From a virus (taxonomy: Duplodnaviria; Caudoviricetes), in the IMG/VR virus record IMGVR_UViG_3300021255_003843, positions 41,496 to 105,495 of that record: DNA of 64,000 nt; one strand, 5' to 3'. Positions within the stretch are counted from its first letter, which is position 1, and each line of letters begins with the position of its first letter. The notes under the pieces are model-generated. The model searched no databases. It had not been told where the DNA came from and was given only the letters and a program-made list of their open reading frames with translations. This document shows positions 4,554-58,672 of this stretch, in pieces. A program made the translations under genes and the position numbers.

Positions 4554-7500
4554 TTAGAAAGAATAGCTCATCGTATTAAAGCCTTGCTTCGAAAGCTCTT
4601 TAACAAACTTCTGTCCAACACGCTGCGCGACCTCGTCAAAGTCGGCGTCATCCTTGAACTGAGCTTCTGTGATGTTGATCACAAGCTCGCCAATGTTCTG
4701 GCTGTTTCCACTGAACGAGTTGCTGTCGATATTGCTGATTGTAGAACGATAACGCACAACCTTTGCCTCGTCTAAGAAGCTGCGTATCAGAGCGGTATCG
4801 TCGGCGCTAAGGAAAGCTTCGGGCTTAGCTTTAGTGCCGTCAACCCAGGCGGGACCAGTGAAATCAACTAAACCACCGGAATCAAAGCCAAATAATTTCT
4901 TAACGTTATCGGCCAGTTTGTTGGCAGTAGCAGATATTGTTTGAGCAACTTTACTCGTTGAACCAATTTTGTCTGTGCCAGAAGAAGCAGTGTCGTAATG
5001 AAGAGCTCTGGAATTGTCAACGTAAGCGCCATTGTTATCTTGAACATTGATCCTGTCAGCGTCTGTTGTGGTATTCGCATTATTGCCAGACCCAGAACCG
5101 GATCCAGATTTCTTACTCGATCCATTTGTCCCAATCCCGCTCAGACCATTATCGCTATGACTATAGACAGCATCACGCTTTTGCGCAGCAATCCAGTTAT
5201 CATACATCTCGCCCCAATCGTAAAGCATTTGTTTCTGCTCATCCTCTGAAGCATTGATGTAATCCTGACTTGCCATCATGTAATTCAGGAACAAGTCTTT
5301 GCCGCTCAAGATATCAGCGATTTCTTCCCAGTAAGTGTGCGTATAACCAATCATTTGCTCGTAGGTGTCGATCCAACCCTGGATCATCTGCTTCTGCGCA
5401 GCGTCCATTGCTAAGCCGTACTCTTCTACGTTAGCCTTCAACCAATCGAGCATACCTTCCTGGCTCATCTGCATTACCTGGTTTACCTCGTCAGCCAGAT
5501 TGTTGGCGTCTTCAAGCCAGGCTTCAAGATCTTCGCCGCCGTAGTTAACGAAATCATCGTAAGCCTGCAGCTGGCTATCGATCTGTTCCTTTTGGTAATC
5601 AGCTTCATCTTCGGCAACATCCCATGCAATCTCTTTCTCGATCTTCGCAATCTGCTCTCTCAGCTTTGCGGCATCCTTTGTGCGGGTGCTGTCCATCTCA
5701 ATCAACGCAAGCTGTTTCTTGTACTCAGAAAGCTCTTCATACTTCTCAGCTTCGTCTTCAGCGTCTTTTCTACGCTGAAGACGTTCGTCAATCAGATTCT
5801 TTTCTTCTTCAAGCGCAGCGCGTTTCTTCTCGATGTCTTTCTCAATCAAAGCCCACTCAGCGCGATAGCGCGCACGGATCGCTTCGATGATGGCGTCTTG
5901 CATGCTGACAGTACCGGCAAGCATATCACGCTCGCGCTGGATACGGTTGTTAATCTCAGTGTCAACCTCGGTTTCAAGATCGGTATGCAGCTTCAGTATC
6001 GCCTGTTCGTTCTCTTCAATCTTCTTTGTATTCTCCTGAATCGCGATGTTTGCTTCCTCGATCGCTTCTTCATAAGCGAGTACACTGTCATACAGGCTCT
6101 TCCAATCGTCGCTGTTCTTCTTCGTCCTTGCCATCTGCTTCTTCGTTGTTTCGATATGCTTCTCAAGCGTAGCAATCAGGCGCTTCTGAGCATCGTTCTC
6201 AAGCTCGATCATCCGGTTCTGGTTGCCTATCTCGCTGGCGTTTTCATACTTTGTCTCTTGATACTGGATCATCTTAATCTCGTGATTCAGCAGAGCTTGT
6301 TCGCGCTTCAGGCGTTCAAGCAGTTTCTGAGCAGCGGACTTACCTCCGCCGCCTCCGCCGCCTCCACCACCGCTACGTCCTTTACCAAGATCGGTAGTCT
6401 GGAACTGTAGTTTAATATTGCTGCCGTCGGATGTAACGACACCAGTTGCTTGCATACCCATTCGCGAAAGTGTTGCCATGATCTCTTGAATTTGAGCTTG
6501 CGCTGCACCAGTTGCTTCGTTGGCAAGCTGAGACAAGTCAACAGTTACTTGACCTTTATCAACCAGCAACTGAATTTGGGATCCGTCCAAACCAAGATTC
6601 TGCAGTTTCTCGTTGAACGTACCTTGCAGACCTTCTGTCAACATGGTGCCAGCAGTATTCAGATAATTGTCAATCGCTTGCTTATCTTCAGTTTCCCAAT
6701 CTTTAATTGCTTGCTGTACAGGGGTGCCGCCTTTTCTTAAATCTTTTTTATCTAAGCCAGTACCTTGCGCAATAGCAGAGAGCACGTCGTTACTTCTATC
6801 ACCTTTTTTGTATTTCTCTCGATAATACTGATTGTTAGCGATAGCATTGATGCCCTGCCGGAACGATTTCATATATGCATTAGAATCTTTAATGTCTCCG
6901 CTAAGTGCTCTAACGCCGCTTGCAATATCTTTTGAAGCTTTATTAAATTTATTATACTGTTCAATCTTTCTTGCAGAGAACTCGCCGTTCAAGGCGGTCA
7001 TATCATATGTAAAATCCTCTGTTGCATTGCCGATCGCATAAAGAAGATCAGCTCCACCTTCAATATCACTCAACCATTGAGCAAAATCTTCGTGACTTGC
7101 TATATAAGATTGAACAGTAGCAAGCTGTTCTGTGTTTAAATTTAGCGAACTGCTTGTACCAAATCCTTCACCAAATTGCTGCCTGGCAATTTCCATATTG
7201 TTATTGAATAATTGATCTCGATAAAGAGGAGCATAGCCAGTGCCTTGGATCAGGGCATTCCGCATCTGGTCATATGTCCATCCGTGCTCGCTATTATAAA
7301 AGATTTCATCAAAGCCGCTGCCAAGCATACGAGCTCCTTCGTCCTTCTTCAGATAATCTAAAAGCTCGGCGTCGCTATTGATGGCCGCTATCAGAGATTC
7401 CTGATCTGAACTTTGCATAGCCAATCTTGCCAAACGGTTCTTATATGTCTCCGCTTCTTTTTCAGGTTCAACATTAGCTGCTGCACCTTGCGTTAAGATT

Positions 7501-13500: not shown

Positions 13501-16500
13501 GTATCTTCATCTATGTCTCTTTGTAATTTATCTATATGATCCTGACCTTGAGTAACAAATATTTTCCAATTTTTGCCAGCTTCTTCTGCGCTTTCAAATC
13601 CTTTCTTAACACCGTCAAGCGTACCAGCTAAATCGTTAAGAGAACCTATAAAAGCCTGTTGATCAGAAGCGGACATATTGCCCTTTGCTTTTTCCCAAGC
13701 CTCGCCATATTTCTGAACTTCATCAATTTGTTTCTGTAAAGGTTGTAAACCTTCTTTTCTGTTTTTAGAATAAGAATCAGCTAGCTTAATTTGCTGTTGA
13801 GCCTTTAATGTCGGGTCGTTTTGATCTACAAAATTTTTACGAGCGGAACCGATAGCTCCGGCAACACCAAGAACACCAGCGATCGCGACAACGGAAGCCA
13901 GTGTGCTAACCAGACCCGCCGCGCCTTTGAAAGTGTTAGAGGCAGCATTAACGATCAGCAGTTTAGTGGCTAGCGCAGCAAGCGCGCCGCCAATCACAAC
14001 AGCAGCGGTAGACACAGGCCCAGCAACAGACGTGAGATCTTTCAGTCCACCGACAAAGCCAGTAACCATATCGACAGAGCTCACAAAGAACTGGTTGCTC
14101 GACATGCTTGAAACCAAGCCATCGTAAGTAGCCTTCAATTCTTCCATCGCAGCCGTAATACTCTTCACAGCGATAGCATACTTGCTATCTGTCGTGCCTT
14201 CACTATTCTCGGCTAAGCCAAGTAATCTGTCTAACTCAGCACCGCCGTCTTCTCCCATGCCTTCCATCAAGGTCTGGAACACGTTCGTCTGCCTGCCGCC
14301 AGCCATTGTATACGTAATGTTATTGCGCTGAATATCATTCAGACTTCCCCAAACCTTAGACAGATCGCGAAGCACATCGAAGCTGTTTCTAAAGCTCTTG
14401 CCACCGCTTTCACGTAACTGAATGCCAGCGCCGGACAGAGCTTTTTCAACATCGTTGATTGACACGGAAGCGCCCGTCTCGTCGTTGACATAACCCTGAT
14501 TCGTAACACGATTCATGCGTGAGAAGATCGTCTGCATAGCAGTACCGATTACCTGGCCGCTCATCTGAGTTTTACTGATACCGATCGTCAGCATTGACGT
14601 TAATTCTTCGTAGCTGACACCAGCAACCTTCGCAGCGGCAGCGGACTTCTGCATACCCTTGAAGATCTCATTAGCTGTCGTAGCCGCGCTGTCGCCCAAA
14701 GCGGTCAGCGCGTCCATCGCTTCTTCAGCGGAGTTTACGAGGCCGTTCTGTATAGCAGTGGTGATTGCCTTGCCGGCGTCTGTCACCTTTGCGCCAGTAA
14801 CGGTGGCGAATTTGATGATCGCGCCAGTACGGTCCTCTACCTGCTGGTCATTTAAACCCTGGCGATAAAGGTCCGACTCAACGGATGCAACGTTAGCAAC
14901 GCTCGTCTTCAGCTCGATAGCGCGATCGACCGTCGCCTTTTTGACAGCCTGCATCTGCTCATCCGTCTTCATCGTAATCGCCTGGATGCCACGCATCTGG
15001 CTATCAAACTGCACAACAAAGTTCTTAGCTTCGGTAAACGCCTGACGGATCATCTTCCTGCCGAAGCTCTGCAGCAGTTTATCCGCAGCGGTTGCCGCCG
15101 TCTCTAAACCGGCAGCAAGCATATTGCCAATTGTCTTGAAGTTGCCGGCAGTGTCGCCGAACTCCTTCATTGCTTCCTTCGTGCTCTCGAGTGCCTCACG
15201 ATAATGGTCAAGACTTGCCGTAGCAGAATCATATTGAGCCTGCGCAAGGTTCCTGTCTTCGTCGGTAGCGGCATTATCAATAGCGTTCTTGGCAGCAAGC
15301 TGCTGTTCTTCCATCCGCTTGACCATCATATCGTTGTAGTTATATTGGCTACGATACTGATCATACATGTTCTGACGCTGGAGGTAAGTGCGACTCAGAG
15401 GATCAATTGCAGTTCTCGATTGCCAGTTGCGGTTCATCTGCTCGACCTGCATCTCGGCACGCTTAGCTTGCATGATCTCTTGTTCGCCGCGAAGCTCTGC
15501 CTGCTTCTGACGCTGGCGAATACGCTCGTTGTAAGCAGCTTCTTCGCGTTTCACGTAATCATCGTTAAAGCGTTCAAGCGGCTTAAGGCGCTCATCTTTT
15601 TGTTCTTGTGTCAGATCAGACTTGCGGATTCTGTCAGCAATCTTGCGAGCATTATCTACATTTTTCTGCGCTTTATCTCTGACAGCTTCAACACCTTCAA
15701 GATACCTCGAGACATCAATATTTTGCTCGTCGTATTTACGCTTATAATCTTCGAAGGTAGTGTTTACTATCTTCGCTTCATCTTCTGTAATAAACCCAGT
15801 CTTCTGTTTCTTCCGGTTGATCCTGGCTTGCTCTTCTCTAAAATCAAGGAAAGATTTTTCTTTATCAATATCGTATTTATCAACATCGGCCATGTAGGTG
15901 CTTAACACCTGAGCAACGCGAGCTCTATCCTGCAGTTTAAGATGCTGCTGTTGAAACATCGTATTCTCGTCGATTTGCTGAGTAAGCACAGAATACGGTT
16001 CCATCTTCTTAGCAACTTCTTCGTCGCTCATGCCTTGATCTTTATATACTTTCTCCAACCTTTCACTCAGCTGAGAAACAACTTCTTTCGCTTCGTTTGC
16101 TCCTTGCTTCAGCTGCTGGAACGGGTCTTTGATAACAGTACCTTTTATTTTATCAAGCAGATTTGTTATATCTGCTTCTTTCATCTTGCCAGTTTCTTCT
16201 CTCGCACCAGCAAGATAAGTGTCAGTTTCTGCTAAACGCTCTTCGTAAAGTTTTCGCTCAGCTGGGCTGAACGGATACTTCTCACGATCCTGCAAATGTT
16301 TCTGAAGTTCATTGCGATAATCTTCGACAGCCTGCAGCTGGTTGTTATACTCTTCGAACTGAACATCGAGCGCGGAAACTTTATTGGCACGCTTACGATT
16401 TGTTTTATCTAGATTCTCATATAAGCGTTTTGCTTTAAGTTCAGTGGTGTCAGCAAAGTCTTGATTCATCTGCTGCATCAAGTCTTTGCGTCCACCAACC

Positions 16501-19500
16501 AATTCTTTAAACTCCTGCTTCATGGCAGGCGGCAGCTGATCAAACTCTTCGCCATTCTTAATAAAATCTTCAAGCTGTCTATAAACAAAGCCAACGTTCG
16601 CAGCCCTGCTTCCGTAATAAGTTTCTGCTTGAGACTTACCTTCAAGCTCATTCTCTTTCTTTAGAAGACCAGACAAGAACTGCTGCTTCACGCTGTCAAC
16701 ACTGGACCGCAAAGTGTTAGCATGTTCTTGAGCTTGAATGTAAGTATAAGCCTTACCAAGTTGAGCATTCTCATCTAAGATACGCTGACGTTGCGCTGTT
16801 ATATCGCGATAAGCCTGCATATCAATCCCGCTGCCAGCAGCGAGTTGATCAACTTCGTCGTATACGCGCGCTACTTGAGCAGCTTCGGCCTCGGCTTTCG
16901 CGAGATCACCGTCTACCGCGTAAATACGTTTAGAAGCTTCAATAGCCTCTTCTTTTGTCATATCCGGAGAATAGCGAGCCTGATCTTCCTGCGGCAACGT
17001 ACTCTTGATCTGATTCATCTGCTCTTCGTGCTGTTTCGTCTCGATCTCAATACGCTGTAATTCAGCTTGATTCTCCTGTAGCTTTTTCTCAACTGCTTCA
17101 CGCTGCAGCACGGTATCCTTGCCAGTGAAAGTAAAATCTAAACCGCCCTTCTGCCCTAAGAATAATTCTGGCAGAAGCTTCGCAGGATCGTCTGTACGGA
17201 ACACAGAGCTAATATTTGGCTGGTTGATACCTCTTTCGATGAAACCCTGGGCTGCAGTAATACCATATTCGTTCATCTTCTTTTGAACATAAGAATCGAA
17301 CGAAACCTCAGAGCCATCTTCCATTTTAATCATGCCACCTTGGGCTTTTTGATATGCTTCTTCCTCGATTTCACGCTTAGATGCTATAATCATAGCCTGC
17401 ATATCATCAAGCTCTTCTGCAGACATCGGAGCCATCGGGTTAGCAATATCATACGCCTTCATTGTGCGAAGGTTCTTCATCAACGCTTGCGTTGTTTCGC
17501 CTGCTCCGCCATAACCCATATGTTCAAGAGCTTGAAGCAGAGCGTACGTGCGTTCCATATTGACGCCTTTAGACGCAACCTGAGATACAGCGCGCATTGT
17601 TCCAACGTCTGTTGTGTTAAAAATAGAACGGAAGTTGATCTTATCAAAACCAAGATCGCGAAGTTCCTTCATGTTGATAGGAATCTCATGTCCGTTTACT
17701 GTTGCGGTGTAGATGTCCTCAGGAGAAGGAACATCCATGTTGTCGCGGCCTGTTACGTTAAACAGGCGACTAAAACGAGACGGAAGCTTAGACCATTGAG
17801 CACCAGCGTATAAAGCCTTCTTCATCTGAGGAGTTGCTTCAGTAGATGTAGCGTGCTTTAACCCGGCGGTAGCTTGGTCGTAAGTAGGTGTGCTTTGAAT
17901 TGCCGCTGCTAAAAGATCTTTATTTTCAGGAGCGTATATATCAAACATTGCTGCACGACGCGCAGAAGCGTCGGCAGCACCCATTTCGTTTGTAACATCT
18001 TGACTTGTTTGAAAGAATAAACGACGATGAAGCGGATTGTCTACATTTTTAGCCGCTTCGGCAGGCATATCTACCTTCTTAATAATGGGCTCCGTACTTC
18101 CTTCAAAATCCTGAATGGCTTTTTCTTGAATGGCAACTACTTCAGCAAACGCTTCAGCTAAATCGCCATAAATCGTTTTTGCTTTATCCCCATCTAAGTC
18201 TGCGCTACCAAGCGTCGCCAAATCCGCCTCAGAAGCGAATAAGCCACTCGTAGTTTGCCCGAAAACTTTATATATATCTCTCGCTAAATTAGCATAGTTT
18301 TTGCCAACAACAAAGTTGCCAAACAGAGAAGGGCTTCTTTGAACAGCAACTTTTTTAGCATCAGGTCTGGCAAAGTCAACAAGTTGACCCTTGTTTAATG
18401 CGAACACACCTTCGAGATCTTCGTCACTAATGGTTAAAGCTGTGCCAGTTTTTTCTTGATATTGTTGACGGATTCTTTTCAGCAAGTCAGACCTACTAAG
18501 GCCATTGATCGTTTCAAGACCTAGTATGGACGCCAGAGGAGACTTATTGATAGTCTGGTTAATAACAGAAGGGTTTGTACCAAAATCTATCCATTCACCA
18601 GAAGACATGCGCTCTGTCAATGATTCAATCTCGTTCTGCACCCAGCTTTGCACGGCACTGCTGTTCACGTTTAGCTTGCCGCTTCTGATCTGCTTACCGA
18701 GATAGTTGTCAGGATCAGCAAACAAATATTCTCTGATGCCAGCCTCAGAACTTAACAGGTTGATGCGTCTATCAAATTCGTCGATTTGTTGTTGACGCAT
18801 CTTCGGACTGAGGTTCATAAAGGCCATTGCTTGAGTGCCGATACCTTTTGCTCTTGTTTCAGCATCATCATATGTGCTCATACTCGACATGCCATAATGC
18901 TGAAGCATCGCCGTAAAACCTTTGCTGATCTCTTCAGGAGTGTGGAAGTTCGAGTACGCCTGCATGTTTTTAATCGTAGAAGCATCAACGAAGCCATGGT
19001 AATCGGTTAAGTCAATGTTGCCGCCAACGCCAGGCAAGATAAACCGACCGTTGGCGTCCGTTAAGCCGGCAGCTTTTGCCCATTCGCCAACAGTCTTATA
19101 ACCGGAGATTTGGTGGAACGTACCCTTGCCGGCAACACCCATACGGCCCTGGAAATCTTTTTCAGGTAGAATACCATCCATGAACCAGCCGATACCATCG
19201 GCAAGCTTCTGCTTCACATTTTCATCATTGATTTGAGACAGATCAACAACAGCAAAGTTGCGATTCTTGAAATTGCCATGTGTGTCCCAGCTGTTTGACC
19301 AACCTTTACCGGTTGCATCGAAGTGTTTTCTCAAGCTTTCAATGTCTTTGAATTCATAAGCAGAATCAACGAAATCATTCCAGAAATTAGCGCCCTTACC
19401 GTCGGCAGTTACAAAGCCATGCTTCTGAGCCCATTCCTGCTCACGCTTCATGACAGCTTCATAAGCTTGCTGCTCAATCATGCGGACACCAGCATGAGTA

Positions 19501-37893: not shown

Positions 37894-37982
37894 GCACATC
37901 GTGCGGCGATTAAGCATAGGCCTAGCCGTGGCAAGCGGTAAACTAACAGCAACTCAACAAACAAAAATTAGGAGGAAAAACC

Positions 37983-41342: not shown

Positions 41343-41572
41343 GCTATGACCTGAGTACGTCGTTAAACTGCTCCGGCTTGTCTGCGCCGTAAAGACAGGC
41401 TTCTTATCCCGCAGCGCGGCTCCCCCTTTTTTCCGGCCCCATATTTTTCCCGCTTCCGCTCGCTCCGCTCCACCTCGCCTTCGGCTCGCTCCGCTCCGCT
41501 TCGCTGCTTGCGTGCGCTTCCGCGCTTGTTTCCGGATGTTGCTCTATCGTGTGATTCTGTCCGAGTTTTCCT

Positions 41573-41662
41573 GATAACTTATCTGGAAAAGTCAGGATGA
41601 GCGGCATCCTGCGATAATTTATCCATCCTTCATGTCAGGAAGAAGTTTGCAGATAAATTATC
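41573..41662. repeat. Three palindromes GATAAnTTATC at 39-40 bp spacing
   Basis: Copies at 41573, 41613 and 41652. Confidence 0.7.
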
Positions 41663-41708
41663 TGGATTTCTCAGGCAAGTCTCATGCGTCTCGCAAAATT
41701 GAGTATGG

Positions 41709-41740
41709 GCGCGCTGAGGACAGCGCGCGCCATGGTGATA
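41709..41740 (+). promoter_or_regulatory. AGGA-loop hairpin element, copy 1
   Basis: GCGCGCTG-AGGA-CAGCGCGC-GCCATGGTG. Confidence 0.7.
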
Positions 41741-42712: not shown

Positions 42713-42744
42713 GCGCGGCGAGGACGCCGCGCGCCATGGTGATA
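42713..42744 (+). promoter_or_regulatory. AGGA-loop hairpin element, copy 2
   Basis: GCGCGGCG-AGGA-CGCCGCGC-GCCATGGTG. Confidence 0.7.
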
Positions 42745-43117: not shown

Positions 43118-43710
43118 CACAGATGAGAGCGTGCTGAAATATGCACGCTCTCTTTTTTCAGAATCCTGGATGAAACTCAGGCTATTCTGTACAGAAGGGT
43201 CGCGATCACTGAACGATCGGGGGACAAGCTATATAATAAATACGATGTCCCCGGATGCACGAGCTCCACTGGTAGAAAAACACCATAATGCACGAAACAT
43301 TTTGGTTAGGGAGCAATGACGTGGAATAGTTGGGAATGTAAGTGAAATCAGGGGAAATGATAGGGGAGAGAACAGTTCTTTTCCTGTTTTTCCTATTTTC
43401 TATTCCTTTTTCATGCTCAATGACCACAGCAGTGCTCCTTAATACCCCACTTTTCTATATAAGCACCAATTGTAGTTTTCTACACTGATAGAGACGGCCG
43501 TGTGTTCACGCTTCGTGAATACCCGTTGCGTATCGCTACACTGGTAGATACACACATTCCGTCTCTAACGATAGACCCATAGGGTTCCTACTAACAACAT
43601 CTAAGCGCTCCCTTTCCTCCACGCCTTTTGGATAGGCGGGGAAAGGGAGCTTATTCATGACCGTGCTTCTCTCATATTCGTTTCTAAACAACACATATGT
43701 ATCTAACATT

Positions 43711-43752
43711 ACGAAAAGGGGAGGGCTGCTGGCGCAGCCCTCCCCTTTTCGT
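43711..43752. terminator. Strong bidirectional terminator hairpin
   Basis: ACGAAAAGGGGAGGGCTGC/GCAGCCCTCCCCTTTTCGT. Confidence 0.8.
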
Positions 43753-43805
43753 GTAAATCAACGTTTTTCGTTTGCATATTCGAAGGTCCGCTTCGCGTCC
43801 CTTCT

Positions 43806-43832
43806 CATATATATCCATTCTCGAATGTAATC
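43806..43832 (-). promoter_or_regulatory. 27-bp motif (copy 3), not followed by a gene with an RBS
   Basis: GATTACATTCGAGAATGGATATATATG. Confidence 0.7.
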
Positions 43833-43930
43833 GCACCTACATACTTTATCTGATATAGTACATCGACAGATGATGTATATATATCTGGTTGAATTTTTAA
43901 CCAGATTATCCTGGACATACCTCGCCTTAA

Positions 43931-43960
43931 CCGCGCTGAGGACAGCGCGGGCCATGATGG
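43931..43960 (+). promoter_or_regulatory. AGGA-loop hairpin element, copy 3
   Basis: CCGCGCTG-AGGA-CAGCGCGG-GCCATGATG. Confidence 0.7.
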
Positions 43961-43976
43961 AACTTACGGGGACTCC

Positions 43977-44005
43977 ATTATACTGTCGCCGTGAAACCCT
44001 GTCAA
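43977..44005 (-). promoter_or_regulatory. Consensus sigma-A promoter
   Basis: TTGACA-N17-TATAAT on the minus strand, facing AGGA hairpin copy 3. Confidence 0.75.
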
Positions 44006-44076
44006 GTTAAATTTTTATTACAAATTTTCGTCGTCTTGCGCTGCAATGGACGATGTAAACCCGCCAGGAGGACCAT

Positions 44077-44331
44077 ATGGAAGAAGAGTTCAAAGAAGGA
44101 GATCTTGTCGTCATCAAACAGAGCAAACATTGCTTAGTTGAAGACATCAGACAAGAACATCGCAAAGCATTTGAGATTCTTTGCGCGACGCCGCACGCAG
44201 TGAGAGATTATAAGAAATCATCAAATCTACTTTATGTTCCGGTTCTGGAAGGCAATGCCACAATTGTCTTGAGTCCGGAATGGTTTGAGCACGCTGACGA
44301 TCCCATCGAGAACAATCCTGACCTGTACTGA
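44077..44331 (+). CDS. Small SH3/KOW-like paralog 1
   Basis: FKEGDLVVIK...PEWFEH...PDLY. Confidence 0.65.
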   Translation: MEEEFKEGDLVVIKQSKHCLVEDIRQEHRKAFEILCATPHAVRDYKKSSNLLYVPVLEGNATIVLSPEWFEHADDPIENNPDLY

Positions 44332-44366: not shown

Positions 44367-44400
44367 GCGGCCTGAGGACAGGCCGCGCCAGGATGAAGGG
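44367..44400 (+). promoter_or_regulatory. AGGA-loop hairpin element, copy 4
   Basis: GCGGCCTG-AGGA-CAGGCCGC-GCCAGGATG. Confidence 0.7.
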
Positions 44401-44453
44401 TTTGACGCCCTTCGGAAATAACAAACGTGCGGCAGAGCCGCGAGGAGGAAATT

Positions 44454-44642
44454 ATGGAGCGTGAATATTTCTTTAACCAGAGCAAAGCTTTTGATCCGAC
44501 CGCCGGCTGCGCCCTGAACCGCATCGAAGCGGAGCAGAAAAGAAAAAGGAATAAGGAAGCCTGGCTCGAGATCGCCCGCAAGATGTGTTCTAAGCCTCAG
44601 CATCTCTTTGTTCCGGTAGGTGAACTGGTTGTGAAAGCCTGA
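44454..44642 (+). CDS. Small hypothetical protein
   Basis: ATG after GAGGAGG. Confidence 0.6.
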   Translation: MEREYFFNQSKAFDPTAGCALNRIEAEQKRKRNKEAWLEIARKMCSKPQHLFVPVGELVVKA

Positions 44643-44680
44643 TCCCGCCGGGAAAAGAAGCTTGACTTCAGCAACGAAAG

Positions 44681-44714
44681 GCGGCCTGAGGACAGGCCGC
44701 GCCAGGGTGAAGGG
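44681..44714 (+). promoter_or_regulatory. AGGA-loop hairpin element, copy 5
   Basis: GCGGCCTG-AGGA-CAGGCCGC-GCCAGGGTG. Confidence 0.7.
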
Positions 44715-44886
44715 TTATACGGCCCTTGCCCGACGAATCGCAAAACAAAAGCGATTCGTCGCAAAATCAAGACTCGTTACGCGCTGCAGACAAATGCTCC
44801 GGCGCGAAACGATATATTTTGATGCGAAAAGCATCCGACAAAATGGCAGACGCCAAACGCCCACAGGGCAGAAAGAGAGAGAGAGT

Positions 44887-45306
44887 ATGAATAAGCTGTT
44901 TATCATGGGTCACCTCACCGCCGACGCTACCGTCCGCACCGTCAATGTCGCTGGCGTTCCTACGCCTGTTGCCACCTTCACCGTCGCTGCCAACTATGGA
45001 CGCCGCAACGAGAATGGTGACCGCAACGTCCAGTTCGTGCGCTGCACCGCGTGGCGTGAATTCGCCAGCAAGCTCGCGCCGTACCTGAAGAAGGGCACCC
45101 AGGTGGCCGTCGAAGGTCCGTGCCGCGTCTCCGTGTACCAGAGCAACCAGGACCGCACCTGGCGTGGTCAGCTCGAGATCCCGACGATCGAGAGCTTCGA
45201 GTTCCTGAGCGCCCAGAAGAGGGACGAAGCGGCTGAACCCGCAGAAGCGCCCGCTCCTGAGACGCCCGCTGCTCCCGCCGCCGATGACGGCTACCCCTTC
45301 GATTAA
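44887..45306 (+). CDS. ssb: Single-stranded DNA-binding protein 1
   Basis: MNKLFIMGHLTADA, ATFTVAAN, YLKKGTQVAVEG, acidic DDGYPFD tail. Confidence 0.88.
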   Translation: MNKLFIMGHLTADATVRTVNVAGVPTPVATFTVAANYGRRNENGDRNVQFVRCTAWREFASKLAPYLKKGTQVAVEGPCRVSVYQSNQDRTWRGQLEIPTIESFEFLSAQKRDEAAEPAEAPAPETPAAPAADDGYPFD

Positions 45307-48422: not shown

Positions 48423-48495
48423 GGCCTCTTAGCTCAGCCGGTAGAGCAGCTGACTGTTAATCAGCCGGTCGCGCGTTCAAATCGCGCAGAGGCCT
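48423..48495 (+). tRNA. tRNA-Asn (GTT)
   Basis: GGCCTCT/AGAGGCC acceptor, GCTGA-CTGTTAA-TCAGC anticodon arm, GTTCAAAT T-loop; no encoded CCA. Confidence 0.88.
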
Positions 48496-48667
48496 CGTCG
48501 GGACGATCTGCCGGAAAATGGCGCAGATCACGCGCAACGCTGTTGGAACAGAAGGCTTGGGTTGCGCAACTTGTCAGCAAAAGAAATATCTATAGTTTTT
48601 AGCCATTTCCATGCCTTGCTTACAGCTGACAGCCCTGCCGCTGGGGTCATAATACAGCGGATTTTAT

Positions 48668-48860
48668 GGAGACTTAGCTCAACTGGGAGAGCGCCAGCGT
48701 TGCTCAGCGTAGGTCAGATGTATAGTCAGGAACTGACCAAAGCGTTTCGGCTCGGCAATATAACTCACCCCGTGATATTAAACGTTGCCATATTTTGTTG
48801 AGGACAGAATAAGCGGATGCACGCAAGAGGTCGGCGATTCGAACCCGCCAGTCTCCACCA
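48668..48860 (+). ncRNA. tRNA-like RNA (193 nt) with ~117-nt structured insert in the anticodon arm
   Basis: GGAGACT/AGTCTCC-ACCA acceptor, AGCTCAACTGGGAGAGC D-arm, TTCGAAC T-loop; Ala-like TGCACGCAAGAGGTC on the 3' side. Confidence 0.7.
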
Positions 48861-48959
48861 GGTGCTGCCTTACAGGGGGCAGTATGCCGGAGTCATGACC
48901 GGCACTTCTGTACGTCGTTTTGGCACCGGTTTGGGCGCTATAATCTAACTGGTGCACGT

Positions 48960-49033
48960 GGGGATTTAGCTCATCAGGTCAGAGCAGCGCTCTTATAAAG
49001 CGCAGGTGCATGGTTCAAGTCCATGAATCCCTA
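48960..49033 (+). tRNA. tRNA-Ile (TAT)
   Basis: GGGGATT/AATCCCT acceptor, GCGCT-CTTATAA-AGCGC anticodon arm, GGTTCAAGTCC. Confidence 0.85.
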
Positions 49034-49106
49034 TTTGCCCGTGACCATGGAAACACGGGCAAGACGCATCGCCTCTTTAAAATATAGCCGGCGTGTCCGG
49101 CTATAT

Positions 49107-49178
49107 AGGGGAGTAGCCAAACGGAAAGGCACGGGACTTTGACTCCCGCATGTGAAGGTTCAACTCCTTCCTCCCCTG
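49107..49178 (+). tRNA. tRNA-Gln (TTG)
   Basis: AGGGGAG/CTCCCCT acceptor, CGGGA-CTTTGAC-TCCCG anticodon arm, GGTTCAACTCC. Confidence 0.88.
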
Positions 49179-49199
49179 CTACGAAATCAAGGAGCTTAT

Positions 49200-53746: not shown

Positions 53747-54418
53747 ATGGATCTTTCTAAATCCTATGAATTCTTCCAGCCTTCCATGTGCGACGGCCGC
53801 ATCCACATCATCGGATGCGGCTCCGTCGGCTCTACAGTGGCGGAACTGCTGGTTCGCTACGGCCTGACCAATATCACGCTCTATGATTTTGATCATGTCG
53901 AGGCTCACAACATCGCTAATCAGATGTTCGATAGTACCGACATCGGCAAGGAAAAGGTCACAGCCGTGGCCGATCATCTGATCGCTATCAATCCGGAGCT
54001 GCGGGACACTCTGCGCATCGCCGATAAGGGCTATACAAATCAGAAGCTCTCCGGCTATGTATTCCTGTGTGTCGACAATATCGACCTTCGACGCAAGATC
54101 GCCGAGGAAAACAGGAACAATGTATTTATCAAGGCGATGTTCGATTTCAGGACCCGCCTGACCGACGCCCAGCACTACGCTGCGGATTGGTCTGACGAAA
54201 AGCACAAGGAAGCCTTCATCAATTCTATGCAATTCTCGCACGAGGAGGCGTCCAAGGAGACGCCTATGTCCGCCTGCCATGTCACCCTCAGTGTGGCGGC
54301 GACAGTGCGCCTGATCTGCACCTACGGGGTCGTCAACTTCATTGACTTCCTCAAGAAAGGGACCCTCAAGAAGACCGTACTCATCAACACAGAGCTCTGG
54401 GACTTGATGGGTATCTAA
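53747..54418 (+). CDS. ThiF/E1-like activating enzyme
   Basis: IIGCGSVGS, YDFDHVEAHNIANQ, GKEKV, CVDN, late Cys in SAC. Confidence 0.92.
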   Translation: MDLSKSYEFFQPSMCDGRIHIIGCGSVGSTVAELLVRYGLTNITLYDFDHVEAHNIANQMFDSTDIGKEKVTAVADHLIAINPELRDTLRIADKGYTNQKLSGYVFLCVDNIDLRRKIAEENRNNVFIKAMFDFRTRLTDAQHYAADWSDEKHKEAFINSMQFSHEEASKETPMSACHVTLSVAATVRLICTYGVVNFIDFLKKGTLKKTVLINTELWDLMGI

Positions 54419-54435
54419 AATAACAGGAGAGGCTT

Positions 54436-55626
54436 ATGTTTGGATATTTCTACTTCACCAGGCGCGCTATCGCAAAGAAAAGTGGGCAAACAAAGTTCAT
54501 AAGCCTCTTGACCTGTGAACCACCGGAACCAGGCGACGCTGACAGCTTCATCTACGGCACCGCTTCCACGAAAACTATCAAGTGTGCAGAGCTTCCTGCC
54601 GAATTCGCGGGTCTGTTCGATGCCGTCGAGGCCGAAAAGGCCCTCGACGGCGTGCTTGCCTACGCCGAAGAGCACCTGACCGGTGATCCGTCGACCTGGT
54701 ACAAGCATTACACGATCCCGAAGCGCTCCGGCGAGCCTCGTCCTATCGACGAGCCGCTGCCGGAGCTGTCTGCTTATCTGTACAATCTGATGGGGATCCT
54801 GCGCAAGAAGTTTTTTGCCATGTACCACGACTCCGCTTATGCGTATGTCAAGTACCGCAATACGAAGCAGTGCCTGGAACAGCATCAGCGCAACACCAAT
54901 TTCGTCAAGATGGATTTCAAAAACTTCTTCGGCAGCACAACGCTGTATGAAGCTATGACCATCCTGCCGAAAATCTACCCATTCAATTTCTTCTGCGAAA
55001 CTGAAGCCAGAAAGGCAAAGCTGCGCAAGGCGCTGTCTTACACTTTTCTGAACGGTGGTCTGCCGCAGGGCACCTGCATATCGCCTATGCTTACTAATCT
55101 TCTGATGATCCCGTTTGATTATGAGATAAATCACAGAGGGATGGGTTTGAACATGACCTATACTAGATACGCAGACGATCTACTTTTCTCAAGCAAGTCG
55201 ATGCGCATATGGAATCGGGAACAAGCCAATAATATGCGTAAGTGTATGGTTAAGGAAGTATATCGGATCCTGCGTCAGTGTGGTTACCCATACCGTCTGA
55301 ATGCGAAAAAGACCAAAGTCTGCTCCCGCCTTGGCAAGAACTGGAATCTCGGCCTCATGCTGAATCAGTACGATGAAATCACCATCGGGCACGAGAACAT
55401 CCGCAAACTCAAGGCAGATCTGTGGAACCTGGTGCAATCGGTTTCTAAATCAAAACCGATTGCAAAAGAGTGGCTTCAAAAGTTTGAGGGCCGCTATCAT
55501 TATTACAGGCTCATCCAGCCGACGCGGGTAGACCAGCTCGCTTCAGCAGCCGTCAGCAAAGGCTATCGCTATTACTGGATGGATATAAACGCAATATTCA
55601 GATTAGCGCGGCTGAGAGCCCAATAA
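54436..55626 (+). CDS. Retron-type reverse transcriptase
   Basis: IPKRSGEPRPIDEP, HDSAYAY...CLEQH (region X), DFKNFF, LPQGTCISP, YTRYADD, LNAKKT, NLGL (VTG position); no maturase or endonuclease extension. Confidence 0.88.
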   Translation: MFGYFYFTRRAIAKKSGQTKFISLLTCEPPEPGDADSFIYGTASTKTIKCAELPAEFAGLFDAVEAEKALDGVLAYAEEHLTGDPSTWYKHYTIPKRSGEPRPIDEPLPELSAYLYNLMGILRKKFFAMYHDSAYAYVKYRNTKQCLEQHQRNTNFVKMDFKNFFGSTTLYEAMTILPKIYPFNFFCETEARKAKLRKALSYTFLNGGLPQGTCISPMLTNLLMIPFDYEINHRGMGLNMTYTRYADDLLFSSKSMRIWNREQANNMRKCMVKEVYRILRQCGYPYRLNAKKTKVCSRLGKNWNLGLMLNQYDEITIGHENIRKLKADLWNLVQSVSKSKPIAKEWLQKFEGRYHYYRLIQPTRVDQLASAAVSKGYRYYWMDINAIFRLARLRAQ

Positions 55627-55632: not shown

Positions 55633-55848
55633 AGTAAACGCCGGGGGCGTCATGCACATGTAAGTATACAGGAATAAGCATTGCGGCTTATAAGGAACTT
55701 ACGCGCTTGATGTCATCAGGCGAACGTCATTACTTCAGAGACTCCTCCTCCTTTGCTAGTACGCCAGGAGGCAGCTAAAGCTGCCTCCTGGCTCCCTAGC
55801 AAAGTCGTCGGTAACTTGTTAGAAAAAGATGACGTCCCCGGTTTTACT
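55633..55848 (+). ncRNA. Retron msr-msd ncRNA located 3' of the RT
   Basis: a1/a2 arms 55633-55653 and 55829-55848 pair over 20 bp (2 GU, 1 bulge); unpaired G55654 opposite G55828; short msr stems at 55675-55690 and 55704-55722; msd hairpin 55751-55804. Confidence 0.82.
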
Positions 55849-55918
55849 ATTTTCCTACGTTCCGGCCAATGTTTTTCTGTCGGAGCGCATTGTTTTACTT
55901 TCAGAAAGGGGCGGTTTC

Positions 55919-58672
55919 ACGAGTACGAAAAGCTATTTAAGCAGTCAAATCCGCCTGATTTCACTCACTACCTACGACCTCCTCACCGAAGAGGAACGCA
56001 CTGTTTACTTCAAGATCGCCGAGCTCAAGAATAAGCTGAACGATCGTACCGGAGAGCGCGAGCAGATCCTTGAACAGAAGAAGATTCTGCAGCAGCAGCT
56101 CTCACAGCTCATTGCCTCCCATGAACATGTACCTCGGTCTGTCAACCTGGATGCCGTGCTCGATCCTACGTTACCGGTGCGCCCGCCGGGGGTTTCCTGG
56201 AAAACTCTCCGGCCTACCAGACGCATCGCCGAGTTCGTGTCCGAAGAAAGCAGGCTCCTTCAGCTGGAGCCTAATGCCATCTCCTTTGACAAGATCATCG
56301 TCAAGTGGAAATCGCTGGACATTCTGCGTCAAATCATACTGAACGGCTTCACCATGCCGGTCATGAATGGGGCGGGAGAGATCGTTGTCAAGCGCTACCG
56401 CTTCCACACAGCCAGCGCGGGACAATTGCGCACCGATAAGGTGCAGTTTATCGCGGAAGACGCCTGGTCCCGCATCGCGCCAGGTATTATGTGCGGTCTG
56501 ACCTGGAACATCATCAACCAAAAAGGCGGCATCAATACCTCAAAGCTGATGGCTTATCTGTCCCTGCCAAGCTCGGCAACCGATCCCTTTGACCTCGACA
56601 TCGATCGCTGTATCGTCGTGGATGATTTTGAAGCGCCTGTTACAGGCATGATGGATTACATTAAGCCGGATTACACGATAGAACGTGGCGTTCGCACAGT
56701 TACAATCAATCATACCGATGGCAGCGGCATGATGCTTCCTTCCGTGTCTCGGTGGAACTTCATGATTCGTGGACCTTGGCTCAAAGGATTGCTCTGTTCG
56801 TTTGACTTCCTGCGCTTCTGCTCTGTCAATCACTGCGAGCCGAAGCTTACAGATGTCTGGGGACAGGAGCATGATTTGATGGCGGAAGATATTCAGGTTA
56901 TCTTCACCAAGAGCCAGCTGAAGCTGTGGAAATACTACGACAGCTGGGATCAGTACAAAACCTGCTTCAAGGAGTGTGGCTGTCACTTCGGTCGCACGAA
57001 TATGGAAGAGGCTTACATCCAAAACTCGGAAACCAACTATCAATTTCTTCAAACACTGGTCGATTTTCCAGACGAAAATCTCAGAGAATTTATCAGGCCA
57101 ACTTATGATCGCATCAAAACCCTGTCAACTGACCGGGAGCACATGCTGCATGCGTTGGGCGCAGATGATTTCTCTGAAATTCCGTACCGAAACGCGCTGC
57201 AAATCTATCCCGAGCTTCTGCGCGAAGCGTATTCGCGTGACTCACTGAAGGCAATCAAGAAACGCTGGACGCTGGACGCCAGGTCTGGCAAGATCCGCTG
57301 TAAAAATAAGCGTCTCTTTGCCATCCCGGATTTCTATGCCGCGTGCCAGTTCTGGTTCCTTCATGAGCAGGAACCCGTGGGCCTTTTGCAGAACGGCGAG
57401 GTGTTCGCAAGGCCTTTTATGCAAACGGATGAGGTTGATGTATTAAGGAGTCCACATCTGTATTTTGAACATGCACTCCGAAAAGTCAACCATGATCCAA
57501 ACATCGCCAGCTGGTTTTATACCAATGGAATTTACACCAGCTGCCACGATCTGATCAGCAGAATCCTCCAATTCGATGTAGACGGGGACCAGCTAAACGT
57601 CCTGTCAGATCAGATCATTTTGAAAGTAGCCAGGCAGAACCTGGAAAAGTACGACATCGTCCCACTATTCTACGACGCCACGAAAGCTCCTCCGGAACAG
57701 GTTACCTCAGAAGCTTTGTTTCACGGCGTCAAGCGCGCGCATGACTACAGCGGCATCGGTCAGATCTCCAACTCGCTTACGCGGCTTTGGAACAGACCTA
57801 ACCCTGATTTTACGTCTGCTGCGCTGCTGTGCTATTACAATAACCTGACGATTGACGGCGCAAAAACCGGGTCCGTCAATTCCTACGACAAATACCCGGA
57901 AATCTCTGCCCGCATTAACAAAGCGATCGGCGGCCCTAATGGGAGAATGCCATACTGGTTTCAGTTCTCCAAGAACGGCCGGCGCGCAGACACGGCTACG
58001 AAAAAGAAGAAGTTGTGCGCAAAGCCTAATGATTCCACGATGAATCGGCTTTGCGCTTTATTTGATGATATAGGAATAATCAATATGAATGCGGCAGGCG
58101 TTCCGCCATTCAACGGCAATATGTTTCTGGAGAATCCGGTCATGGATTATAACGAACAGGCTGTTGAACTTTTTAATACGCTGGACGCCAGTAATCTCCA
58201 GTCTCGTATCGAAGGCGCTTCCATGATGGATATTATGGAAAAGTACAACGCCATCGGCTACGAGGCTTTGAAGGAACTGATCACAGACAAGCTGACCGAC
58301 CTGTGCGGCAGCCTGGAAAACGCTTATCCGTCCATTGCCTACTATCTTTTCATAGGCGAAGGCGCGGACAAAGCTTCCCATAAGCAAATGTTCTGGCGCG
58401 TGTTCGGCGACATCGCGCTGCGCAACCTGAAGTTCAACCTGATGACCTCTGTCTCGTGTCCTCACTGCGGCATGAAACTGCCGGTATGGGAGGAGGGGCA
58501 TGTCTGCTCTCCTGTAGCCCACGGTTTCTTCACCTGTGAAGATTGTGGGCAGTGGTGTCCTCGCACCAACAGCAGGCAGCGCCGCTGTGCCGCATGTCAG
58601 AAGGAGTATCGTAGGGCTTCGCTCGTCGCGCACAATCAGAAGTATCGCGCCATCAAAAAGGAGACGGCCTGA
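55919..58672 (+). CDS. YonO-like single-subunit RNA polymerase with C-terminal Zn ribbons (candidate late RNAP); start uncertain
   Basis: SAGQLR, HTDGSG, FMIRGPWLKG, LRSPHL, QFDVDGD (nt 57575-57589), IGQISNSLT, IDGAKT; CxxC pairs at the C-terminus. RBS AGAAAGGGG sits 7 nt before an in-frame ACG at 55919. Confidence 0.88.
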   Translation, partial: TSTKSYLSSQIRLISLTTYDLLTEEERTVYFKIAELKNKLNDRTGEREQILEQKKILQQQLSQLIASHEHVPRSVNLDAVLDPTLPVRPPGVSWKTLRPTRRIAEFVSEESRLLQLEPNAISFDKIIVKWKSLDILRQIILNGFTMPVMNGAGEIVVKRYRFHTASAGQLRTDKVQFIAEDAWSRIAPGIMCGLTWNIINQKGGINTSKLMAYLSLPSSATDPFDLDIDRCIVVDDFEAPVTGMMDYIKPDYTIERGVRTVTINHTDGSGMMLPSVSRWNFMIRGPWLKGLLCSFDFLRFCSVNHCEPKLTDVWGQEHDLMAEDIQVIFTKSQLKLWKYYDSWDQYKTCFKECGCHFGRTNMEEAYIQNSETNYQFLQTLVDFPDENLREFIRPTYDRIKTLSTDREHMLHALGADDFSEIPYRNALQIYPELLREAYSRDSLKAIKKRWTLDARSGKIRCKNKRLFAIPDFYAACQFWFLHEQEPVGLLQNGEVFARPFMQTDEVDVLRSPHLYFEHALRKVNHDPNIASWFYTNGIYTSCHDLISRILQFDVDGDQLNVLSDQIILKVARQNLEKYDIVPLFYDATKAPPEQVTSEALFHGVKRAHDYSGIGQISNSLTRLWNRPNPDFTSAALLCYYNNLTIDGAKTGSVNSYDKYPEISARINKAIGGPNGRMPYWFQFSKNGRRADTATKKKKLCAKPNDSTMNRLCALFDDIGIINMNAAGVPPFNGNMFLENPVMDYNEQAVELFNTLDASNLQSRIEGASMMDIMEKYNAIGYEALKELITDKLTDLCGSLENAYPSIAYYLFIGEGADKASHKQMFWRVFGDIALRNLKFNLMTSVSCPHCGMKLPVWEEGHVCSPVAHGFFTCEDCGQWCPRTNSRQRRCAACQKEYRRASLVAHNQKYRAIKKETA

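Follow-up and report, generated by a model that had tools for sequence, protein, structure and literature searches.

Three predicted two-barrel RNA polymerases, one of them fused to a giant tape measure protein, in an uncultured long-tailed phage

All cellular transcription is carried out by two-barrel polymerases, and the single-chain versions encoded by phages are their simplest working forms and the nearest relatives of the eukaryotic RNA-silencing polymerases. A staged programme is known from phage N4, in which a virion RNAP, RNAP II and the host RNAP act as a three-stage cascade. The giant N4 virion polymerase is ejected and, aided by SSB, reads DNA hairpin promoters with loops of 3 nt. 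The enzymes of N4 belong to the T7-like rather than the two-barrel type, and the third polymerase, used for late genes, is that of the host. SPbeta encodes one two-barrel enzyme, YonO, which transcribes its late structural and lysis operon (Forrest et al. 2017, PMC5467207). Thermus phage P23-45 encodes two, the virion protein gp96, which is fused to the tape measure protein, and the free enzyme gp64 (Chaban et al. 2024, PMC10770324). The original prediction, which proposed three DxDGD polymerases for the phage described here, had cited these precedents (one in SPbeta, two in P23-45) correctly. No published description of three such polymerases in one phage was found in the literature.

The phage is uncultured and long-tailed, with a genome of 105 kb; all coordinates refer to the window, a 64,000-nt stretch of that genome. 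A six-frame translation of the window contains exactly three D.DGD motifs, each inside a two-barrel RNA polymerase homologue. Mononucleotide shuffles contain a mean of 0.17 such motifs, and none of 200 shuffles reaches three. The motifs and the genes that carry them are as follows.

18186-18200, minus strand: DLDGD, residues 906-910 of the tape measure protein
39447-39461, plus strand: DFDGD, in P0002
57575-57589, plus strand: DVDGD, in P0003
4554-20915, minus strand: giant tape measure protein gene, a single open frame of 5453 residues with an N-terminal RNA polymerase domain
37983-40493, plus strand: RNAP-2 (P0002), 836 residues, YonO-like clade a, with an acidic C-terminal tail
55829-58672, plus strand: RNAP-3 (P0003), 947 residues, clade b, with C-terminal CxxC pairs

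The three polymerases have a common motif order (DG, R..KG, RxP, DxDGD). The basic residues of the second (beta-like) barrel are R591/K597 in the tape measure protein, R228/K233 in P0002 and R314/K319 in P0003, with R-to-D spacings of 46, 44 and 43, respectively. The predicted trio is thus borne out by a two-barrel motif set with intact catalytic residues in all three proteins, and by two-barrel fold models of the tape-measure domain and P0002. A phylogeny of the three domains places them in separate clades, with support of 100/99 for the tape-measure clade, 100/100 for clade a, and 99/99 for clade b together with SPbeta YonO. Clades a and b also differ in their C-terminal tails, which are acidic in the former and zinc-ribbon-like (CxxC) in the latter. 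By sequence, the phage encodes three related cell-type two-barrel RNA polymerases, one more than in the published P23-45 scheme. With three polymerases of its own, the phage probably runs most of its gene-expression programme itself.

P0003 is assigned by sequence as the orthologue of YonO. It shares 35% identity with yonO (E 1e-121) and matches phrog_8308 (E 1.5e-174) and the Pfam RdRP family PF05183 (26 bits against a cut-off of 23.8), and it has the same C-terminal CxxC pairs as YonO; its two-barrel fold is predicted from the 35% identity. Unlike the present phage, SPbeta has only this one enzyme of the kind, and its tape measure protein lacks a polymerase domain. The start originally given for RNAP-3, 55919, needs correction, as this position is an ACG codon and ATG 55829 is the only in-frame start near the 5' end.

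P0002 is more distant from YonO (tblastn E 2e-12; phrog_8308, E 4e-58) and belongs to a second, old YonO-like lineage. Residues D198, G199, R228, K233, R445, P447, D489, D491 and D493 are invariant across 25 homologues. Its model (pLDDT 88) matches QDE-1 in Foldseek with E 6e-16 and RDR2 with a TM score of 0.58, and P23-45 gp96 (8h2m) only weakly (E 0.19). When the sequences of P0002 and P0003 were searched against the PDB nothing significant was found, and a YonO-like profile matched RDR2 weakly (E 0.09).

The third polymerase lies in the gene located between the head genes and the Dit gene, with Dit directly downstream. The product of this gene matches PF10145 (PhageMin_Tail, E 7e-25) and nine tape-measure PHROGs, so that the polymerase core and PF10145 are found in the same 5453-residue frame, as had been claimed. 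The gene contains the following features.

17544-20000, minus strand: two-barrel RNA polymerase core, residues ~306-1124
19122-19154, minus strand: FQGRMGVAGKG, basic motif of the second barrel, residues 588-598
14298-14918, minus strand: PhageMin_Tail domain, residues ~2000-2206 (PF10145, 88.6 bits against a cut-off of 33.2)
13839-14030, minus strand: two hydrophobic membrane-type segments, residues 2296-2359 (Kyte-Doolittle window scan)

The N-terminal domain has no Pfam or PHROG match of its own, and its likeness to other polymerases is seen by profile-to-profile comparison only. Its profile aligns with that of the YonO-like family in hhalign (97%, E 9e-11, 428 columns), lining up DG, R..KG, S..K, Q, RxP and DxDGD in order. 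The DLDGD motif pairs with DFDGD of P0002, and FQGRMGVAGKG with FTVRAPMVKG. In the tape-measure family, D906 and D908 are kept in 39/39 and D910 in 38/38 of the members with a residue there; Q589 is kept in 39/39, and R591, K597 and G598 in 38/38. An AlphaFold model of the domain (pLDDT 83, pTM 0.79) superimposes on maize RDR2 (VIA-align Z 20.1, 514 residues, 3.8 A), QDE-1 (Z ~20; Foldseek E 1.6e-11), and P23-45 gp64 and P74-26 gp62 (Z 15). The best solved matches of this model and that of P0002 belong to the same two-barrel fold class, namely QDE-1, RDR2 and gp66, the virion RNAP of crAss-like phage phi14:2 (PDB 6VR4), at a sequence identity of only 10-13%. Unlike the domain described here, gp66 is not part of a tape measure protein, while QDE-1 and RDR2 are cellular RNA-silencing enzymes. 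Both the profile alignment and the model indicate that the tape-measure domain is a third, more distant member of the YonO-like polymerases.

The overall arrangement resembles that of P23-45, which also has a giant tape measure protein (gp96, 5002 residues, compared to 5453 here) whose N-terminal ~1100 residues hold a DxDGD two-barrel polymerase, a free paralogous polymerase near the start of a genome arm, two classes of DNA signals of its own, and polymerases proposed to have arisen by gene duplication within the phage. The source, however, is not a Thermus phage, and it carries three phage polymerases instead of two. The tape-measure domain also differs from gp96 in lacking a sequence match to it, and there is no HExxH metallopeptidase motif. 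Searches of its profile against PDB sequences returned nothing significant, with gp96 not among the matches, and tblastn against isolated phages gave no match. The gp96 structure (8h2m) is likewise missing from the fold matches of the model, whereas gp64 and gp62 are present. As a result, the fusion may be independent of gp96, and its role may differ. A fusion experimentally known from one Thermus phage family also exists in a family of giant proteins, at least 35 in number, that is unrelated in sequence.

By analogy with gp96 of P23-45, for which this has been shown, the N-terminal ~1100 residues of the tape measure protein would be a polymerase built into the tail, ejected with the DNA, and making the first transcripts. 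The domain might instead be an inactive relic, a primer-maker for replication, or an RNA-templated polymerase, given that its best fold matches are the eukaryotic RNA-dependent polymerases RDR2 and QDE-1 and that it has no detectable likeness to gp96, the one proven case. We regard this as improbable. The catalytic and basic residues are kept in all aligned members despite an overall identity of 25-50%, which argues against a relic; YonO, a proven DNA-dependent enzyme, shares these nearest relatives; and a location at the tip of an ejected protein fits a first-wave enzyme.

The trio is not confined to this genome. Among 23 related viral records, 14 carry the tape-measure N-domain inside open frames of 2818-7271 residues; TAG codons interrupt the corresponding frame of one record, G002. 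Each of the 8 relatives with a completeness of 76-100% and a detected fused domain also has two free YonO-like genes, and the trio therefore marks a phage clade. Some of the relatives are proviruses, and the nearest named ones infect Bacillus and clostridia. A megablast search with 24 kb gave no match, and an Rfam search found only three tRNAs. Three diverged copies per genome represent a natural experiment, with a tail-ruler fusion, an acidic tail and zinc-ribbon-like ends, that bears on the evolution of promoter choice, timing and delivery around a single catalytic core.

We consider it rather likely that three active single-chain two-barrel polymerases share out the transcription programme of the phage. 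The virion enzyme would act first, on the region of RNAP-2; P0002, the free enzyme of the old clade a lineage with its acidic tail, would then transcribe units preceded by a hairpin signal, which include the RNAP-3 gene further downstream; and P0003, with its zinc-ribbon-like tail, would transcribe the late structural genes, as YonO does, from units preceded by a 27-nt motif. This wiring is the most likely one. Both of the repeated upstream motifs that had been described are real and rare, and are kept at matching positions in the closest relative.

The first signal is a GC-rich hairpin with an AGGA loop, followed by GCCA(T/G)G(G/A)TGA. It is present in five copies, all on the plus strand and all past the RNAP-2 gene at 37983, as had been predicted.

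41709-41740, plus strand: hairpin 1 plus GCCATGGTGATA, preceded by 370 nt without coding sequence, with the RNase H gene (41999) downstream
42713-42744, plus strand: hairpin 2, ~35 nt upstream of the ORF at 42779
43706-43750, no strand assigned: strong two-way intrinsic terminator hairpin flanked by A and T runs, read from the sequence
43931-43962, plus strand: hairpin 3, between the strong terminator and the ORF at 44077
44367-44398, plus strand: hairpin 4, between ORFs 44077-44331 and 44427-44642
44681-44712, plus strand: hairpin 5, upstream of the SSB gene (SSB domain in ORF 44662-45306)

Three further copies occur in a related genome, G001. All eight hairpins are 100% paired, with compensatory changes in 6/8 pairs, and their DNA folding energies range from -11.5 to -16.5 kcal/mol (z -4.4 to -5.1). 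A covariance model of the hairpin found no copy in addition to these eight. Hairpin families of the same type are located directly after the clade a gene in G001, G019 and G021/G022; the more distant families resemble the AGGA hairpins in type only. A reading of the AGGA loops as ribosome-binding sites with ATG/GTG starts is rejected. Hairpin 2 is not a gene start, since its ATG GTG is followed by ATA TAA, and the ORFs that follow hairpins 1, 3 and 4 are shorter than 25 codons.

We propose that the hairpins are phage-specific signals preceding early genes of DNA metabolism (RNase H, SSB). The stop codons of the small ORFs before them are 36-40 nt away, and start codons follow them, so that the hairpins could also be sequence-specific stop or RNA-processing signals between genes. 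Stable GC-rich stems would suit such a role, and the virion enzyme of P23-45 has a conserved 26-nt hairpin-like terminator motif. However, the AGGA hairpins have no T run after them, and the loop and the 12 nt downstream of it are conserved, which would be needless in a simple terminator. Hairpin 1 is preceded by 370 non-coding nucleotides and hairpin 3 by a strong terminator, places where a stop would be useless and a start is needed; the genes downstream of hairpin 3 require a new start. A stop or processing role is therefore held to be unlikely, though it deserves some weight.

If the hairpins are promoters, the enzyme that reads them need not be P0002. In an N4-like wiring, the tape-measure virion enzyme would read them, aided by SSB, while P0002 would be made by the host polymerase and have another task, such as the middle genes. 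The hairpins are the most numerous signal and are packed within 3 kb before small early genes, a clustering like that of the 14 promoters read by the virion enzyme of P23-45. Being downstream of the P0002 gene, the hairpins cannot serve it, and the SSB gene comes after hairpin 5. The position of the hairpin families just past the clade a gene in relatives has been counted in favor of this wiring as well. Against it, the virion enzyme should by the logic of P23-45 transcribe the gene of the next polymerase, which the hairpins do not, and the N4 enzyme belongs to the unrelated T7-like family, so that the analogy is one of function only. We judge the N4-like wiring to be unlikely, and retain the assignment of the hairpins to P0002 as the most likely one. 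A similar hairpin followed by ATGGTGA is present in an SPbeta-like provirus that has only the clade b enzyme, which argues against tying hairpins to clade a. No like hairpin was found in the SPbeta region between yonN and yonK.

The host polymerase may also have a share. On the minus strand, a perfect sigma-70 consensus (TTGACA-17-TATAAT) occupies 44005-43977, while 36592-36564 is a conserved sigma-70-like site within an inverted repeat that G001 shares. Together with four palindromic operator-like sites, the perfect consensus suggests some host polymerase input and a repressor. Apart from a 27-mer at the divergent junction, ~2 kb from the P0002 gene, no repeated promoter-like motif was found upstream of that gene. 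It is a serious possibility, although we put it short of an even chance, that the programme is not self-contained and that the host enzyme transcribes part of it, such as a lysogeny-control region or the first genes, P0002 among them; the occurrence of proviruses among the relatives fits this picture, and the host enzyme is still in use in the published systems that have two phage polymerases. On the other hand, sigma-70-like sites are not enriched between 35 and 51 kb (20 observed, 16.1 expected), a Pfam search found no sigma factor gene, and the structural and replication units carry the phage-specific 27-mer. A Pfam search for T7-like polymerases also gave no match, but its control gave no signal either.

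The boldest form of our proposal, a fully host-independent three-step relay from a tail-injected to an early to a late enzyme, one of them recognizing DNA hairpins with 4-nt loops and the whole kept across a clade of 90-150-kb long-tailed phages, is put forward tentatively, and we think it rather doubtful. If true, the fixed 4-nt-loop hairpin would be the first structure-specific promoter for the two-barrel superfamily. By analogy, such a programme of three stages, the first run by an ejected giant virion polymerase, would resemble that of N4, from which it would differ in its two-barrel enzymes and in hairpin loops of 4 nt.

The second signal is a 27-nt motif, CATATATATC(C/A)ATTCTCGA(A/G)TGTAATC. 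The whole 105-kb genome has four copies, all within the window, where none is expected by chance; as written they are at 4431, 36107 and 43806 on the plus strand and at 59869 on the minus strand. We favor reading them in the opposite direction, as listed below.

4431-4457, minus strand: 27-mer between the terminator hairpin of the tape measure gene and the Dit gene
36107-36133, minus strand: 27-mer at the divergent junction, pointing into the structural operon, with a matching copy in G001
43806-43832, minus strand: 27-mer opposing the plus-strand genes, with a matching copy in G001 at 84-105
59869-59895, plus strand: 27-mer pointing into the ORF at 59962 and the primase-helicase gene (60477-62360)

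In this direction the motif reads GATTACAYTCGAGAATKGATATATATG followed by a purine-rich stretch, and three units have it directly upstream: the structural operon, the genes of the distal tail and the primase-helicase gene. Beyond the junction copy, the first ORF begins at 36016, and the large terminase and portal genes come after it. The copy at 4431-4457 ends 8 nt before a GGAGG ribosome-binding site and 19 nt before the Dit ATG at 4411; G001 has a matching copy after its giant ORF. The originally proposed association of the motif with replication and structural genes fits the placement of the three copies before these units; it does not fit the fourth (1/4), which opposes the genes and points into ~95 nt ending at the terminator at 43706-43750. 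A phage-specific motif on late genes distinguishes this phage from P23-45, whose late genes use the host enzyme.

The forward reading, with CATATAT... downstream, appears less likely. It would leave 2/4 copies antisense and leaders of more than 200 nt, and the sequence past GAATG is not kept in G001, whereas a purine-rich run is kept on the opposite side. Three matching places in G001 carry an identical 22-nt core, with relative orientation unchanged. An exact search of a viral contig collection with the 27-mer gave no match. Being short and sharply defined, the hairpin and the 27-mer offer handles on promoter recognition by YonO-type enzymes and could yield orthogonal transcription parts. The more distant relative G019 has a linear motif of its own, ending in TATAAGGGGAG; all of its copies (5/5) point with the genes, which also speaks against the forward reading of the 27-mer, and one of them is located 22 nt before the structural operon.

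The D.DGD motif occurs exactly three times in the six reading frames of the window, compared to a mean of 0.17 in shuffled sequence (three were reached in 0 of 200 shuffles). All three copies lie within long open reading frames, namely the free polymerase genes P0002 (37983–40493, plus strand, 836 residues) and P0003 (55829–58672, plus strand, 947 residues), and a region near the N-terminus of the 5453-residue tape measure protein, referred to here as the N-domain. Each carries the same motifs in the same order (DG, R..KG, RxP and DxDGD), and the R-to-D spacing is 46 residues in the N-domain, 44 in P0002 and 43 in P0003. The original prediction of three DxDGD polymerases in one phage is thus borne out.

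Across 83% of its length, P0003 shares 35% identity with SPbeta YonO (E 1e-121). It also scores above the Pfam RdRP threshold, and its match to PHROG 8308 (E 1.5e-174) runs from end to end. Its sole usable start codon is the ATG at 55829; the start first assigned to it, 55919, is an ACG codon. P0002 matches the same PHROG (E 4e-58), as well as P0003 (E 1e-18) and YonO (E 2e-12). Residues D198, G199, R228, K233, R445, P447, D489, D491, G492 and D493 of P0002 do not vary across 25 aligned homologues. The AlphaFold model of P0002 (pLDDT 88, pTM 0.86) finds only two-barrel polymerases as fold matches, among them QDE-1 (E 6e-16), P23-45 gp64 (E 2e-4) and phi14:2 gp66, and compares to RDR2 with a TM-score of 0.58 and an rmsd of ~7 Å over ~900 columns. 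The ribosome-binding site and first codons of P0002 (AGGAGGAA...ATG AGT ATC ATT AA, 37969–37996) are present in a second copy 143 nt upstream (37826–37853), which precedes a short ORF (37774–37941). This copy may be a duplication remnant or may belong to a leader peptide.

The identity of the giant protein as a tape measure is supported by matches to nine tape-measure PHROGs, a PhageMin_Tail domain (residues ~2000–2206) and two hydrophobic segments (residues 2296–2359). Its first 1500 residues match no family in Pfam or PHROG. An exhaustive HMMER search with residues 130–1290 returned 80 proteins; ~35 are full-length giants of 3.7–6.8 thousand residues, all with the domain at the N-terminus. 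Overall identity within this family is 25–50%. Counting the sequences that have a residue at each position (38 or 39), Q589, R591, K597, G598, K649, Q695, P862, N873, D906, D908 and D910 are always conserved, and R860 and K913 are found in 37/39 and 37/38, respectively. The family profile matches that of the YonO-like family with 97% probability (E 9e-11, 428 columns), pairing every motif with its counterpart. The AlphaFold model of the N-domain (pLDDT 83, pTM 0.79) aligns with maize RDR2 (Z 20.1, 514 residues, 3.8 Å), QDE-1 (Z ~20), and P23-45 gp64 and P74-26 gp62 (Z 15), while multisubunit beta-prime subunits are matched over the catalytic barrel only (Z ~8). Foldseek results are concordant (E 1.6e-11). 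The profile and fold matches provide strong evidence that residues ~306–1124 are a two-barrel polymerase with an intact active site. Overall, all three proteins are very probably genuine two-barrel polymerases with intact active sites.

The tape measure-fused polymerase gp96 of Thermus phage P23-45 appeared in neither the N-domain profile search nor the fold matches, and so the fusion described here may have arisen independently. Far from the polymerase core, residues ~3575–3632 weakly match PF21867 (E 0.005, below cut-off), a family annotated as 'virion DNA-directed RNA polymerase domain'. A glycine run is located near the C-terminus (residue 4849).

Pattern searches gathered 24 related viral loci, and 23 records were searched for the N-domain, which is present in 14 within open frames of 2818–7271 residues, the frame in G002 being interrupted by in-frame TAG codons. 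All eight of these that are 76–100% complete (G002, G003, G004, G006, G008, G009, G019 and G021) also encode two separate YonO-like genes, as does G022 (62% complete). The N-domain is missing from a group of SPbeta-like records, which carry a single YonO-like gene. DxDGD is kept in all rows of the polymerase alignment. The maximum-likelihood tree contains three separate supported groups. The tape-measure domains form one (support 100/99), P0002 belongs to a second, clade a (100/100), and the third, clade b (99/99), joins P0003 to SPbeta YonO and the second paralogues. Clade a proteins have acidic C-terminal tails, with 40–56% D/E in the last 25 residues (52% in P0002, tail at 40415–40493). Clade b proteins, including YonO, have a basic tail preceded by two or three CxxC pairs (58450–58672 in P0003). 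These C-terminal tails may set partner or promoter choice. Judged by sequence, the clade-wide occurrence of the trio, the tree and the distinct C-termini indicate that the trio is old and conserved, with specialised members. In G002, in-frame TAG codons are found in the tape-measure N-domain (5) and the clade b gene (4), with 0 in the clade a gene, which suggests that this relative decodes TAG as an amino acid in its late genes.

The viral record (105,495 bp, no terminal repeats found) is estimated to be 95% complete, and the window covers its bases 41496–105495. The genes form two arms that diverge at ~36.0–36.6 kb of the window.

Gene arms of the phage (window coordinates)
33069–34724, minus arm: large terminase
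31467–33068, minus arm: portal
28073–29077, minus arm: major head protein
4554–20915, minus arm: giant ORF (tape measure protein)
3320–4471, minus arm: Dit (ATG at 4411)
minus arm: minor tail protein
plus arm: small ORFs and P0002
41999–42490, plus arm: RNase H
within 44662–45306, plus arm: SSB
48423–49179, plus arm: three tRNA genes, Asn(gtt), Ile(tat) and Gln(ttg)
53747–55626, plus arm: ThiF/E1 gene (PF00899, E 4e-22) and reverse transcriptase (RVT_1, E 8e-18)
plus arm: P0003, Sak annealing protein and primase-helicase

The tRNA genes sit within an array of small paralogous ORFs. The reverse transcriptase is directly 3' of the ThiF/E1-like gene, and the pair is immediately upstream of P0003.

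A linear 27-mer occurs four times in the whole genome (zero expected by chance).

Copies of the 27-mer
36107: in the reading GATTACAYTCGAGAATKGATATATATG, directed into the structural operon (leader ~90 nt)
4431: after the terminator hairpin of the tape measure gene, with its end 8 nt short of the Dit ribosome-binding site, GGAGG
59869: in the reading GATTACAYTCGAGAATKGATATATATG, directed to the ORF at 59962 and the primase-helicase gene
43806: in the reading GATTACAYTCGAGAATKGATATATATG, directed against the plus-arm genes, into ~95 nt ending at a two-way terminator (43706–43750)

G001 is the closest relative, with a P0002 homologue of 75% identity. It carries the 22-nt core of the 27-mer, unchanged, at three matching places and in the same relative orientation (the junction, directly after the giant ORF, and the early arm), amid poorly conserved DNA. 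In the reading GATTACAYTCGAGAATKGATATATATG, a purine-rich run follows every copy of the 27-mer (GAAAAGAAG, GAGAGAGAC, AGAAGGGAC, AGAAGGGAA); sequences on the other side are not alike between the two phages. The more distant G019 has its own linear motif (...GGTATAAGGGGAG) in five copies, of which one lies 22 nt ahead of the structural operon and another precedes the clade b polymerase gene. All five are oriented with the genes, which supports the chosen direction and a promoter role for the 27-mer. The copy at 43806, like its G001 counterpart, opposes the genes and possibly drives a short antisense or primer RNA.

A second element, a hairpin, occurs in five plus-strand copies between 41.7 and 44.7 kb (41709, 42713, 43931, 44367 and 44681). 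It consists of an 8-bp GC-rich stem and an AGGA loop, followed by GCCA(T/G)G(G/A)TGA. A covariance model found no weaker copies in the window (next hit E 0.7). G001 has three copies, with a GGGA loop, in the matching place. Every position pairs in all eight copies, with compensatory changes in 6 of the 8 pairs, and the observed score was matched by 0 of 500 shuffles. As single-stranded DNA, the hairpins fold with -11.5 to -16.5 kcal/mol. The next ORF is 30–260 nt away, and hairpins 4 and 5 lie 36–40 nt past the preceding stop codon. A start signal is favoured over a stop signal, since hairpin 1 is preceded by 370 nt of non-coding DNA and hairpin 3 by a strong terminator. A role as translation starts was rejected: hairpin 2 is followed by ATG GTG ATA TAA, and hairpins 1, 3 and 4 by ORFs of <25 codons. 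In G019 and G021/G022, repeat families of similar type (GC-rich stem, 4-nt loop CAAG, then a box ending GGTGA or CGTGAA) are located just downstream of the clade a gene; they are beyond the reach of the covariance model, and the likeness is in type only. The hairpins cannot be tied to clade a, because one similar element exists in an SPbeta-like provirus with a clade b enzyme only.

By analogy with P23-45, the tape-measure domain is probably carried in the tail and would make the first transcripts. YonO transcribes the SPbeta late operon (PMC5467207). This role, the orthology of P0003 with YonO and the placement of the 27-mer point to P0003 as the reader of the 27-mer units, including the structural operon, an assignment with an even chance of being right. 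That P0002 reads the hairpins is a more tentative proposal. P23-45 and its Thermus relatives combine a tape-measure fusion, one free polymerase and two promoter classes (PMC10770324). Their gp96-type fusion is known by experiment from P23-45, whose gp96 is the only experimentally proven tape-measure polymerase. The paper on P23-45 also lists many viruses with two polymerase genes, with no case like this phage in the parts of its table considered here (PMC10770324). Full-text literature searches turned up no account of three two-barrel polymerases in one phage, nor any that pairs YonO-type enzymes with a tape-measure fusion. Phage N4 likewise relies on three polymerases, two of them T7-like and one supplied by its host, whereas all three here are phage-encoded two-barrel enzymes.

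Sigma-70-like sites in 35–51 kb are not enriched (20 observed, 16.1 expected), and the search for sigma factor genes gave none. The host polymerase may nevertheless transcribe part of the genome, in view of the perfect consensus site and the palindromes described below. Upstream of P0002, conservation in non-coding DNA is limited to the 27-mer at the junction and the hairpin that flanks it, a short directly repeated sequence (two copies of AAAATGGGA), a hairpin resembling a terminator, and an inverted repeat (GCCCTTGA...TCAAGGGC, 36555–36600) conserved with G001. The inverted repeat encloses a minus-strand sigma-70-like site facing a conserved terminator (36328–36307); the two may form a small antisense RNA unit at the junction. 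The ~600 nt at 43440–44060 have no credible ORF and contain a long hairpin (43609–43650), the two-way terminator, a 27-mer, hairpin 3 and a perfect sigma-70 consensus, TTGACA-17-TATAAT (44005–43977, minus strand). From this site, an RNA of ~250 nt would run back across the other signals. A near-perfect palindrome, TTTCCAGATAAnTTATCTGGAAA, is present in four copies in non-coding DNA, two just upstream of hairpin 1 (window 41564–41594 and 41646–41666) and two at genome positions 22811–22839 and 24823–24851; it resembles the operator of a dimeric repressor.
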